Positions 4,140 through 60,874 of a stretch of 64,000 bases of DNA are shown one piece after another. Numbering within the stretch: the stretch's first letter is position 1; the number at the start of each line of letters is the position of its first letter. The notes beneath the pieces were generated by a model. That model was not told the DNA's origin. It worked only from the letters and a program-made list of their open reading frames with translations, and ran no database searches. The stretch lies in the NCBI GenBank assembly GCA_951406725.2, contig OX597831.1:45570001-45634000 (forward strand), given 5' to 3'. The position numbers and the translations under genes were made by a program. Source of the DNA: Octopus vulgaris. Taxonomy: Eukaryota.

Positions 4140-4354
4140 TATCTTTTATCTTTTACTTGTTTCATTCATTTGACTGCGGCCATGCTGAGGCACCGCCTTG
4201 AAGGGTTTTAGTCGAATGAATCTACCCCAGGACTTAATATATTTTTTAAGGATTGCCCTCATTCTATCGGGCTCTTTCGCCGAACCGCTAAGTTACAGGG
4301 ACGTAAACACACCAACACCGGTTGTCAAGCGGTGGGGGGGGGGAAACACAGATA

Positions 4355-4397
<43 letters not shown>

Positions 4398-4560
4398 ATA
4401 CATATGACGGGCTTCTTTCAATTTCCGTCTACCAAATACACTTACAAGGTCCGAGGCTATAGTTGAAGACATTTGCCCAAGGTGCCACACAGCGGGACTG
4501 AACCCAAAACCATGTGACTGGGAAGCAAGCAAGCTTCTTACCACACAGCCACGCCTGCGC
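4140..4560 (-). mobile_element. SINE family A, tail-to-tail with the 3522 copy
   Basis: Reverse complement of the family A consensus, with internal (CA)n. Confidence 0.88.
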
Positions 4561-21917: not shown

Positions 21918-22245
21918 GAAGGCGCATGGCTCAGTGGTTAGAGCGTCGAGCTTACGATCGTGAGGTTGTGAGCTCGAATCCCGGAGCAGCTGTGTATAGG
22001 CGCAGGAGTGGCTGTGTATAGGCGCAGGAGTGGCTGTGTATAGGCGCAGGAGTGGCTGTGTATAGGCGCAGGAGTGGCTGTATGGCAAGTAGATTGCTTA
22101 CCAACCACATGACTCCGGGTTCAGTCCCACTGTGTGACACATTGGGAAAGTGTCCTCTACTATAGCCTCGGGCCGACCAAAACCTTGTGAGTGGATTTGG
22201 TAGACGGAAACTGAAAGAAGCCCGTCGTATATATGTGTGTATGTG

Positions 22246-22329
<84 letters not shown>

Positions 22330-23439: not shown

Positions 23440-24600
23440 GGCAAATAAACACACGCCCTATATATTCGTCCTTCACTTCAGCTTTATTATTGCTCTTATT
23501 TCTGTGTCCTTTGTCTGAAATCTTTCGTCACACCTCCTGTGACCTCTTCAGCGACTCTCCATCCCACGTGTCTCCTATCCTGTTTAGTCCATTCTGTCTT
23601 TCTCTGTTGTGTATCCTTATCTGTGTGTGCGTTTGCGCTTGTATCTATGGGGGTGTGTGTGTACGTGTGTCGAGGGGGTCTATTTTGTCTGTGTCTGTTA
23701 TGGGGGTGTCTGTTTTGTGTGTGCGTGTATGGGTGTGCTTACTATACGGTTTGTACTCGTGTCCTTTACTGAAATTTATTTATTTATTTATTCATTTATT
23801 TCTCTATTTTGTTCTCATTCCGTCTAAAGTATGTGCATATGTGTGTATGTGTGTCGTGTGTGTCTAAATTATGTGTGTTTGTGTGTATGTATGTCTTGAG
23901 TTTATGTATTACGCTGTTTGTATTTGTGCCTTTTTTTATTCTGTCTTTAGTCATCATGTTGCGTAGTCTGGCTGAGTCGTGTTATTGTTTCATTCATGTT
24001 TTCTGTTGAGGCTCGATCTGTTTACTACTATGTGTGTGGCCGCTGTAATCTAAGTGTCGTGTCTGTTCTATGTGTTATAAATGCTATGTGTTGATAATGG
24101 CTTAATATTTATGTTGTTAACAGAGCCGCTATGTTTTAAATGAGTATGTTGGTAGAGCACCTACGAACTTTTCTCCTCTTTGAGCTCCCTCCAGTGTACA
24201 CCTCTCCGCTCCCCTATGTTACGCGCTGTCTCCCCAATGTATGTTGTTGCCTTTTTTCTGCAACTGCCTTCAGTTACACCGTAAGCTGTCGACTACTTTC
24301 CTAATCTTACAGTTAACCAATGGGTTCATCCTACATACTGTACAGTTGATATCCGTACATGTGGGGCTTTTGAATGGAATGGTTCTACAGGTCAGGGATT
24401 TGATGGGGCTTCCTAGCCTTTCTACCACTTTAATCTGTAGATCTGCCTTATCTAAAGTTTTCCTAAAAAGGTACGCTAGTTCACTGACTCTTGGTATTTT
24501 TGGTTGTTATACCATTATTTAGCCTTATCTATCTTCTTTTTGGTCCTTTCTATACTATATCAAGATTTACTTCTCTATAGCGGGCAGATCCCATTTGCAT
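23440..24600 (-). mobile_element. Penelope-like element remnant (GIY-YIG endonuclease and 3' region)
   Basis: Minus frames read CTDINCTVC...VNCKIRKVV...LRC and TYIGETARNIGER. A hammerhead-like motif lies downstream at 23513-23555. Confidence 0.85.
23513..23555 (-). ncRNA. Minimal hammerhead-ribozyme-like motif (Penelope-associated)
   Basis: GTCG CTGAAGA G GTCACA-GGAGG-TGTGAC GAAA GATT TC AGAC: core boxes and a 6-bp stem II are intact, stems I and III are imperfect. Confidence 0.65.
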
Positions 24601-24606
24601 CACTCT

Positions 24607-25024
24607 CAGAAGTTTTGTTTTACGAAACTAAAGAATATATTTAAATCGTCATCGCAAAAGTATTATACAATAATATACAAAAGATTTTTTTCTCTAATCG
24701 AATGACCGGTTTCGCTGCAGCTTTTCAAATTTTGAGTGTTAGAAGCAATTCGAAAGGAGAAATTTTGTTTGTTAGAGGAGGATAATTGGTAATCAAGATA
24801 TTTTTCAGACATCCCCTTCACTTAAAAATACCTTGGTTACCAGTCATCCTCCCCTAACAAACAAAATTTCCCCTTTCGAATGGCATCTAACACTCAAAAT
24901 TTGAAAAGCTTCAGCAAAACCGGTCATTCGATTAGAGAAAACATCTTACTTTGAATAATATTGTATAATAGTTTTGCGATGACGATTTAAATATATTCTT
25001 TAGTCTTGTAAAACAAATCTTCTG
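24607..25024. repeat. Long inverted repeat (about 200-bp arms, 18-bp spacer), each arm carrying a variant hammerhead motif
   Basis: 24607-24805 is the diverged reverse complement of 24824-25024. Confidence 0.92.
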
Positions 25025-25196
25025 GGTTTTTTTTCATCTTATTTCTTTCCTTGTATATTCAACTACGTATAATCACCAACCATACTTTCTCACTTATGTG
25101 TGTATGTGTGTGTGTGTGTGCATGCATACATACATACATACATACATACATACATACATACATACATACATACATACATACATACATACATACTTA

Positions 25197-25731
25197 CAGG
25201 GTGTCCCCCAAAAATTGACATCATTTCGTAATCTAATAACAGCTTAAATTATCTCAAATTTTTACTAAATATGTAAAAACTAAGTTTGAATCAGGCTTGC
25301 CAATAATAATGACAATGTGCTGTTGAAATGGCCTCCACGTTCGCCTGACTGGAGACTTTGAGATTTTTTTTGCTATTGGGCTATGTGAAAGGAGTGGTCT
25401 ATATCCCACCTCTTTCTATAAGCCTAGAGGAACTCAAGCAGAAAATCACTGAGGTGCTGGAGAATGTTACGCAAGACATGCTACTGTATGTCTGGCAGAA
25501 GCAGGACTACCGACTTGACGTGTGTCGTGTCACTGGCGGTGAGCAGATTGAACATTTGTGAAGTTTTGTGAAATCGGTTATAAAATCTACATCCCTCTGA
25601 ATATGTTATTCGAATTTTGATAAATAAATATTTTATTGTTCAACATGAAGCCCATAAAGATTTCGTTTGGCTCGGACATGTAATTATTCAGATATTCACA
25701 TTTCAAATGTCAATTGTTTGGGGACACCCCG
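25197..25731 (+). mobile_element. Internally deleted IS630-Tc1-mariner element
   Basis: TA-CAGGGTGTCCCCCAAAAATTGACAT ... ATGTCAATTGTTTGGGGACACCCCG-TA. Residual WPPRSPD...FFLLGYVKGVVY...LEELKQKI. Confidence 0.88.
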
Positions 25732-25824
25732 TATATACATATACACACACACATACACACATATATACACATACACACACACACATACATGCATACATAT
25801 ATACGCACACATTCATGCATGCAC

Positions 25825-26341: not shown

Positions 26342-26760
26342 CTCTCTTTTACTTGTTTTAGTCATTTGACTGCGGCCATGCTGGAGCACCGCCTTTAGTC
26401 GAGCAAATCGACCCCGGGACTTATTCTTTGTAAGCCCAGTACTTATTCTATCGGTCTGTTTTGCCGAACCGCTAAGTTACGGGAACGTAAACACACCAGC
26501 AGTTACGGGAACGTAAACACACCAGTTGTCAAGCAATGCTAGGGGGACAAACACAGACACACAGACATATACACGCACACTTATATATATACATATATAC
26601 GACAGGCTTCTTTCAGTTTCCGTCTACCAAATCCACTCACAAGGCATTGGTCGGCCCGGGGCTATAGCAGAAGACACTTGCCCAAGATGCCACGCAGTGG
26701 GACTGAACCCGGAACCATGTGGTTGGTTAGCAAGCTACTTACCACACAGCCACTCCTGCG
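26342..26760 (-). mobile_element. SINE family A (left member of a near-identical inverted pair)
   Basis: Full-length reverse complement of the consensus. Confidence 0.92.
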
Positions 26761-26973
26761 TATGTGTGAATGTATGTGTATATATCACCCAAGAAGATCT
26801 AAAACAATGCAAAGCCAGAAAGAAAAATGGCGCGATTAAGCTCAAACTTCGATCAAGTGACCACAATAGTACCAACAATAAGCTCGCATGCGCAGAAGGC
26901 AGTGTGAGAATAATAAAGAAATATCATGGCGAAATTGCGGGTCATTTTTGACTTCACCTCGTATATATATATA

Positions 26974-28293: not shown

Positions 28294-28614
28294 GTGTATA
28301 TATACATACGAATACAAACATATACACATATACATATATACACATATATACCCACACATATATACACCTACACATAGGCGCACATACATATATGCACACA
28401 CATATACAATCATACATATATATACACACGCCTATACGTATTTTTTTTACGTTTTTACATATCTATATAAACATCTACATAGTACTGTGTGAATATATTC
28501 TTTTCTACTTGAGGCAAAAGGCCCGAAATTTTTGGAGAGGGAGCCAGTCGATTAAATCGACCCCAGTATGCAAACGGTACTTAATTTATCGACCCCGAAA
28601 GGATAAATTATATA

Positions 28615-29305
28615 CGTAACTTTGATTCTCCGGACAGTGTTTGGTTGGTGTTTTCATGTGGATTCAGAATTGTTGTAATAGTAAATTCCGGTAGCTTAAG
28701 TATCGTCTTTTTATGTTCAGTTTTGGTGAAAATATTCATTTTCTGTCTATATTTTTTTTTAAATGGGAATACTTTGAATTTTCTTTTGCCACATTCTTCA
28801 AAACGTTCTCTGCATGCTGTGCTTCTAATTGAGGGGTCATGTACCGTTACTCTCTCATATAATCTAATACCCGTTTTTCCAGTATAGTATTCTTTGCATT
28901 CTGAGAAAGTAGCGCATGAAAACAGGATTCTGCACTTACAATTCATATTTGCATTGATTTTTAAAATATTGTTGTTTTTAAAAGGGATTTGTTCTCCTTC
29001 GTCAATGTATTTGCATGTTCCGCAATGAGGGTCACAACATTTTTTAAACTCTCTTTGCTGCTTCTTTTGTTGTAAATCGTGCTTTTTAGGTTGAGTGCTT
29101 GGTGTTTGCCATATATTATTATTTCTGATTTTGTCATTAGGTTTGTTGAAGAATTAGGAGATATCTTCTTACAGTAATGAGAATGGCTTCTAAGGTCGCT
29201 GTTGATAACAAAGGGGATGTTTATAAGTTCATTTCTATTTTTATGTTCGTTTTCTTCTGGGTTATGTAGTTGGAATGTTATTCGCTTTGATAATAACTGA
29301 ATCAA
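28615..29305 (-). mobile_element. Penelope-like GIY-YIG remnant
   Basis: MNCKCRILFSCATFSECKEYYTGKTGIRLYERVTVH, preceded by a C..C..C..I zinc-linker-like segment in another frame. Confidence 0.85.
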
Positions 29306-45342: not shown

Positions 45343-46779
<1,437 letters not shown>

Positions 46780-55766: not shown

Positions 55767-55964
55767 TTCTTTTATTGGTTTCAGTCATTTGACTGCGGCC
55801 ATGCTAGGGCACCGCCTTTAGTCGAGCAAATCGACCCCAGTACTTATTCTTTGTAAGCCTAGTACTTATTCTATCGGCCTCTCTTGCCGAACCGCTAATT
55901 AACGGGGACGTAAACACACCAGCATCGGTTGTCAAGTGATGTTGCGGGGACAAACACAGACACA

Positions 55965-56036
<72 letters not shown>

Positions 56037-56195
56037 GGATGGGCTTCTTTCAGTTTCCGTCTACCAAATCCACTCACAAGGCTTTGGTCGGCCCGAGGCT
56101 ATAGTAGAAGACACTTGCCCAAGGTGCCACGCAGTGGGACTGAACCCGGAACCATGTGGTTGGTAAGCAAGCTACTTACCACACAGCCACTCCTA
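55767..56195 (-). mobile_element. SINE family A
   Basis: Consensus match. Head-to-head with the 56615 copy. Confidence 0.9.
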
Positions 56196-60447: not shown

Positions 60448-60481
<34 letters not shown>

Positions 60482-60874
60482 CAAACATACGTTGGAGTGG
60501 CTGTGTGGTAAGTAGCTCGCTCACCAACCACGTAGTTCCGGGTTCAGTCCCACTGCGTAGCACCTTGGGCAAGTGCCGTCTACTATAGCCTTGTGCCGAC
60601 AGAAGCCTTGTGAGTATATTTGGTAGACGGAAACTGGAAGAAGCCCGTCGTATATATGTATATATATGTATATGCGTGTGTGTGTGTGTATGTTTGTGTG
60701 TCTGTGTTTGTCCCCACAACATCACTTGACAACCGATGCTGGTGTGTTTACGTCCCCGATGGAATAAGCACTAGGCTTACAAAGAACAAGCCCTGGGATC
60801 GACTTGCTCAACTAAAGGTGGTGCTCCTGCATGGCCACAGTCAAATGACTGAAACAAGAAAAAGAGTAAAAGAG
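60103..60874. mobile_element. Head-to-head pair of family A SINEs (60103-60365 -, 60493-60874 +) around (CATA)n
   Basis: Consensus matches on opposite strands. Confidence 0.85.

Follow-up and report, generated by a model that had tools for sequence, protein, structure and literature searches.

A fold-back beside a Penelope-like remnant

The window (the whole 64-kb stretch of Octopus vulgaris DNA analysed here) is animal sequence rich in microsatellites. Within it lies a fold-back whose two arms are inverted copies of one dispersed repeat, hereafter family F. The remnant of a Penelope-like open reading frame (ORF) of another family adjoins it on the left, and hammerhead motifs occur in both arms as well as downstream of the remnant. 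The features are:

23511-23556, minus strand: minimal hammerhead motif with canonical core; the remnant's stop lies about 440 nt upstream
23990-24607, minus strand: 5'-truncated Penelope-like ORF remnant of another family (RT thumb end, cysteine-rich linker, GIY-YIG), with stops and frameshifts
24607-24808, minus strand: left arm, a family F copy that likely represents a Penelope-like element's 3' end, cut short at 24607 against the ORF remnant
24693-24743, minus strand: type I hammerhead motif with U3:A8 core, from a descriptor and reading of the left arm
24761-24811, minus strand: weak match to the GIY-YIG C-terminal block, E-x3-I-x4-P-x-L-N, from a profile of relatives
24809-24820, no strand: 12-nt spacer at the fold, from alignment and folding
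24821-25024, plus strand: right arm, an inverted family F copy head to head with the left arm
24886-24936, plus strand: the motif's second copy, in which A replaces G12
25025-25095, plus strand: T-rich continuation of the right arm that leads into (TG)n/(CATA)n microsatellites (right limit approximate)

Local alignment of the arms of the 418-nt fold-back gives 183 matches in 201 columns, with 18 mismatches and 2 gaps. The minimum free energy (MFE) of the 418-nt strand is -249.1 kcal/mol, and none of 100 shuffles was equally stable. Inverted arms and folding energy thus bear out the fold-back of the preliminary description. Blastn and alignment detected no third copy of the arm in the 64-kb window, which holds two inverted copies only, and no target-site duplication was seen at 24607/25024. 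RNA editing between the arms was considered; nine of the 18 mismatches are transitions, five of them in one direction, which is too few to support it.

The ORF remnant combines an RT thumb, a cysteine-rich linker plus, at the C-terminus, GIY-YIG, as expected of EN+ Penelope-like elements (PLEs). A 78-residue piece of it (24273-24506, minus strand) has 71 relatives among 1.84 billion representatives by HMMER; in a word-index protein search with the linker, 0 of 71 candidates reached E <= 0.001. When six relatives were scanned with Pfam, three matched GIY-YIG and one RVT_1, mostly at or below cut-offs. A frameshift-aware alignment to the relatives' profile runs from 24619 to 24089 with a score of 183, and the C-terminal GIY-YIG block follows at 24049-23999, ahead of a stop at about 23990. 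This alignment and the relatives' Pfam matches confirm the earlier statement that the fold-back adjoins a Penelope GIY-YIG remnant. A Pfam search of six translated frames gave a sole match, to CAP_GLY at E 0.11.

The motif at 23511-23556 was absent from the earlier reading of the window. It comprises CUGAAGA, a bulged G, a 6-bp helix II, GAAA, a near-palindromic AGAUUU and C17, with a helix I of 3 bp behind a G.A mismatch at the first pair. None of 200 shuffles matched its descriptor, and Rfam returned no hammerhead match for it. It fits the pattern of the minimal hammerhead ribozymes (min-HHRs) of PLEs given in PMC4209133, and its position suggests that it is probably the remnant's own 3' ribozyme. 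Two unrelated hammerhead motifs from two families thus lie within 1.2 kb.

Elsewhere in the window, a third Penelope-like remnant can be recognised by eye at 28608-29153 (minus strand) by its cysteine-rich linker and degenerate GIY-YIG motif; it gave no Pfam match at E 0.05 and no hammerhead descriptor match nearby. An open frame of 351 codons at 45539-46594 (minus strand) may encode a mariner-type transposase, which it resembles. Between microsatellites at 25200-25733, a segment with short inverted ends CAGGGTGTCCCC ... GGGGACACCC resembles a small Tc1/mariner-type DNA transposon remnant. A dispersed SINE-like repeat of about 240 nt adjoins CA/TA microsatellites in many copies of both orientations, including 4346-4449, 22070-22314, 26551-26783, 55950-56194 and 60467-60711.

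The U3:A8 hammerhead motif and its family

The left-arm motif (minus strand, 24693-24743) reads exactly as quoted in the preliminary description: a UUGAAAA core, GCUGCAGC, GAAA, ACCGGU, C17 and a bulged stem I. U3 falls at 24728, A8 at 24723, G12 at 24713 and C17 at 24704. Helix II has 2-3 bp. Helix III (ACCGGU) is self-complementary and consists of one pair, or forms as a dimer. Helix I, as it stands in the window, has 3 bp, three mismatches in register, a 4-nt bulge and five more bp. The left-arm sequence thereby confirms that the motif is of hammerhead type, carries the U3:A8 swap and has a helix III complementary to itself; the left copy has the complete core (3:8 Watson-Crick pair, G12-A13-A14, A15.1-U16.1 and H17). 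The right copy fails at G12, the loss of which had already been pointed out; it has A there, and its loop II differs too.

A full descriptor, which was written after the motif had been seen and asks for the U3:A8 core, the G10.1-C11.1 pair, a stem II no shorter than 2 bp, a helix III that is palindromic and a stem I no shorter than 3 bp, matched the left motif as its sole site in the window and none of 200 locally shuffled windows. A looser descriptor without stem I matched three sites, versus 0.67 per shuffle (30 shuffles). The hammerhead fold of the monomer is not thermodynamically favoured (+9.7 kcal/mol versus an MFE of -3.8), the folding energy of the 51-mer was equalled by 171 of 200 shuffles, and Rfam hammerhead models gave no match up to E 10. 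The exact motif had no match in viral contigs. A gapped core pattern matched four times in metagenomes and three times in prokaryote genomes, two of these matches being duplicated between the collections. They were rejected as relatives and treated as chance, as they share no likeness beyond about 40 nt around the pattern.

We aligned contigs from 4 of 24 listed runs, from four organisms, to 24300-24815 at 80% likeness. This placed 247, 343, 199 and 305 contigs per run, most of them less than 90% alike, and every bin of the arm was covered in all four runs. The arm is a member of a dispersed multi-copy repeat family in four organisms. Arm-side contigs (at least 5 in run X8 and at least 9 in run X10) continue past the arm end like the right flank of the window. 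Thus, the right arm with its T-rich tail is the longer copy of the two, family F sequence takes up at least the first ~25 nt of 25025-25095, and this copy ends at the microsatellites. The alignment of many family contigs breaks off at 24770-24775, possibly at an indel. The fold joint itself was not found in other copies among 15 of the 29 joints listed.

Stem I is better in other copies than in the window. A C>A change at 24699 occurs in 9, 11, 6 and 9 contigs of the four runs (depth shares 345/560, 434/674, 36/46 and 474/534) and makes an A-U pair; so does G>A at 24700, found in 8, 13, 7 and 7 contigs. A C at 24698, present in a loose-end line of eight contigs in one run (X5), gives a C-G pair. 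These family letters turn all three in-register mismatches into pairs and yield a perfect 6-bp helix I. Since two majority letters and a third from one run perfect the helix, a real ancestral hammerhead is favoured, and this support is independent of the earlier parse of the motif. Among the substitution rows listed, stem changes are one-sided, with no two-sided compensatory change in any pair. None of 40 listed rows out of 164 falls in 24701-24717 or 24719-24743; it is from this absence, rather than from a count, that we infer conservation of the core across family F. At 24718, most copies of ordinary depth (18, 24, 8 and 9 contigs) carry the right-arm letter. The palindromic stem II described earlier therefore holds for the left arm as read, but not as the state of the family.

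The letters that break helix I are common to both arms, which means that they were already present in the template from which the pair was copied. This fits a divergent subfamily, and also a later DNA-level duplication of a decayed copy.

In runs X5 and X8, some contigs of very great depth align over about 24701-24731 alone and have one base more in loop II. Their depth is 13,720 over three contigs in X5 (long pieces, ~23-59) and 1,158 in one contig in X8 (versus 5-8); such contigs are absent from X1 (80% read) and X10. From sequence, they may derive from a relative that is young and highly amplified and survives in two other species, or have no relation to the family, as a match of ~30 nt can arise from unrelated DNA, which the prokaryotic core-pattern matches illustrate.

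Origin of the arms

The earlier reading linked the fold-back to the abutting GIY-YIG remnant by pointing to the inverted pseudo-LTRs of Penelope elements. The contigs contradict the arm as the pLTR of that remnant. At 24607, 20, 21, 17 and 27 ORF-side contigs per run depart from the window, and by hand translation their line reads GARAKYKAII in frame before the window's ESDANG, resembling the thumb of the relatives. Because contigs of the ORF family continue into RT-thumb code at this point, the arm is foreign to the ORF family there; the adjoining family is a separate one, probably with its own motif at 23511-23556. We also rejected the idea that the arm is decayed sequence coding for the neighbouring ORF's RT thumb, since the scores are 14.8 and 15.7 versus 16.3 +/- 2.4 in 100 shuffles. 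The same repeat does not recur at the 3' end of the remnant ORF, the window having no further match to the arm. The junction shares one base and is spanned by a contig from organism B that shows 11 differences over 357 nt; it is thus older than the split from that organism. What survives of the earlier claim is that a Penelope-type inverted end is the best reading of the arms; what does not is the tie to the remnant, since the arm is not its pLTR.

A possible trace of coding sequence lies within the arm. Seventeen codons (24811-24761), a segment chosen after inspection, score 10.4 against the GIY-YIG C-terminal block of 18 relatives, a value that 3 of 2000 shuffled versions of the 76-nt segment attain, as do 23 of 2000 when the whole arm is shuffled. 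The corresponding score is 6.3 for the right-arm copy, which 70 of 2000 shuffles attain, and 20.4 for the true block in the neighbouring remnant. We regard a GIY-YIG-like block in the family F arm as suggestive only. Together, this 17-codon match and the architecture make a PLE assignment of family F likely; the contigs of the four runs showed neither a full-length element nor an ORF of family F. The frames 24725-24811 (minus strand) and 24818-24904 (plus strand) remain open until a UGA inside the hammerhead core. It is conceivable, if quite improbable, that family F is a Penelope-like lineage whose ORF stop is U4-G5-A6 of its own U3:A8 core. If true, a terminating ribosome would melt the ribozyme, coupling cleavage to translation.

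The architecture is that of head-to-head inverted copies, one with a tail. In PLEs, a head-to-head inverted pLTR with an optional tail is described in PMC3846280 and PMC8557442, and the former treats head-to-head inversion as a common PLE junction explained by self-priming. Like the EN+ PLE units of Arkhipova et al. 2013 (PMC3846280; PMC8557442), the family F arms are ~200 bp long and head to head, one of them tailed, and they lie next to microsatellites and another PLE (PMC3846280). Unlike those units, they show no target-site duplication, and the ORF beside the direct arm appears to be of another family (PMC3846280).

The motif has close counterparts as well. The U3-A8 variant is not new: Schistosoma PLEs carry this core with ~1,300 hits (PMC4209133), and U3/A8 is reported as a natural covariation with earlier in vitro activity in PMC3088659. 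The core swap and the G10.1-C11.1 pair are those of the S. mansoni U3-A8 min-HHRs (Cervera and de la Pena 2014, PMC4209133). Other likenesses to the PLE min-HHRs of that paper are a palindromic helix III predicted to need a dimer and the occurrence mostly as single truncated copies, with pairs on opposite strands 100-700 bp apart. Helix II differs, being 2-3 bp without a bulged base here and 7-8 bp with a bulge in Schistosoma (PMC4209133), though helices II of 2 bp are common among hammerheads (PMC3088659). Helix I in family letters (6 bp, 4-nt bulge and 5 bp) is longer than in PLE min-HHRs (PMC4209133). The host differs from that of the Schistosoma PLEs (PMC4209133), and family F is known here without a full element. 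Penelope-like families of Octopus vulgaris are given in PMC13282606, the main text of which lacks the word 'hammerhead'. Family F was not found described in our literature search, although supplementary alignments may contain it, and a text search for C3U/G8A wording of the core swap gave no match.

On this evidence, we think it probable that a dispersed repeat, likely a truncated PLE 3' end (pLTR), makes up the fold-back as two copies placed head to head and likely deposited together at insertion, and that the U3:A8 motif was likely functional once as a type I hammerhead and is now probably inactive. Self-priming, as proposed for Penelope elements, would account for the inverted copy. The 5'-truncated ORF copy could have joined the left arm at 24607 via nested insertion, deletion or template jump.

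An unlikely alternative is that family F is a non-autonomous, retrozyme-like or SINE-like hammerhead repeat, one copy of which underwent a local inverted duplication. The family letters give an architecture (6-bp helix I with a bulge, one-pair helix III, palindromic tetraloop) that resembles the classical retrozyme type I HHR of PMC7229834. In the axolotl retrozyme HHR_Amex1 in particular, a palindromic tetraloop caps a one-pair helix III, and helix I has 6 bp with a distal bulge (PMC7229834); this likeness is one of DNA sequence. Locus-specific letters common to both arms and the many family contigs that stop at 24770-24775 also suit such an origin. Retrozymes are, however, typically tandem direct repeats (170-400 bp, each with a type I HHR), and the window holds inverted copies, with no third. 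Unlike the HHR_Amex1 retrozymes (PMC7229834), family F has a U3:A8 core, a shorter helix II and no tandem direct repeats here, and the GIY-YIG-like block upstream of the motif speaks for a PLE. The two origins overlap in any case, as animal retrozymes are traced back to the pLTRs of PLEs in a preprint of 2026 (bioRxiv 10.64898/2026.07.22.740005).

We consider it very unlikely that family F is the 5' pLTR region of the neighbouring remnant's own family, with the RT core lost by an internal deletion at 24607. A direct and an inverted pLTR ahead of the ORF would be the textbook layout, microhomology-mediated internal deletions are described (PMC3846280), and the single base shared at the junction would agree with one. 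Against it, blastn detected family F nowhere downstream of the remnant's stop; the motif in the 3' region of the remnant, with C3:G8, is unrelated, and family F has a putative ORF end of its own.

Activity and significance

A transcript of an active ancestor would have held two copies in tandem, which would swap their ACCGGU halves to form helix III, and the dimer would cut after GUC, following the dimer model of PMC4209133; hammerhead dimer work is reviewed in PMC6765202. In the predicted homodimer of the left motif the ACCGGU and GCUGCAGC palindromes pair (-20.1 kcal/mol) and helix I is left broken; the ACCGGU homoduplex has -8.3 kcal/mol.

Dimer-dependent activity at this locus, as first proposed, appears unlikely from the predicted folding. 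Each strand has one copy. A heterodimer with the motif at 23511 was rejected, since its helix III halves, ACCGGU and AGAUUU, do not pair (+1.2 kcal/mol). Read-through RNA is predicted to fold into a duplex of ~200 bp that would bury the motif, the mean pairing of which to the opposite arm is 0.96-0.97. With one copy per strand, a second motif that cannot pair and 96-97% of the motif sequestered, the locus is probably inactive, likely an ordinary relic.

That the left-arm motif still cuts here as an intermolecular dimer is, accordingly, very improbable. All core positions of the left copy are intact, its palindromes pair in the predicted homodimer and U3:A8 cores are active in vitro (PMC3088659). 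Nevertheless, helix I is broken in that dimer and has three in-register mismatches, and a cis partner is lacking; the opposite arm is upstream on the strand that carries the motif, so that the motif would be sequestered in a transcript coming in from the right. PLE min-HHRs are moreover weak even as dimers (PMC4209133). Very improbable too is a hammerhead look due to chance inside an AT-rich repeat or MITE-like fold-back, for which speak the unfavoured fold, the silence of Rfam, the 0.67 chance matches per window of the loose descriptor and the core pattern's seven occurrences in prokaryote and metagenome collections without wider similarity, but against which stand the full descriptor's absence from 200 shuffles, the family letters that restore all three stem I mismatches and the departure from a MITE (inverted termini, target-site duplication and discrete ends), there being neither a target-site duplication nor an empty-site joint and the copies extending past the arm end, unlike a MITE terminus.

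The finding overturns nothing. The known set of Penelope-associated hammerhead motifs gains one more U3:A8 family, whose helix II is very short. An old, decayed fold-back copy offers no test of what PLE hammerheads do in vivo; an intact family F member, if one exists, would be a useful substrate.
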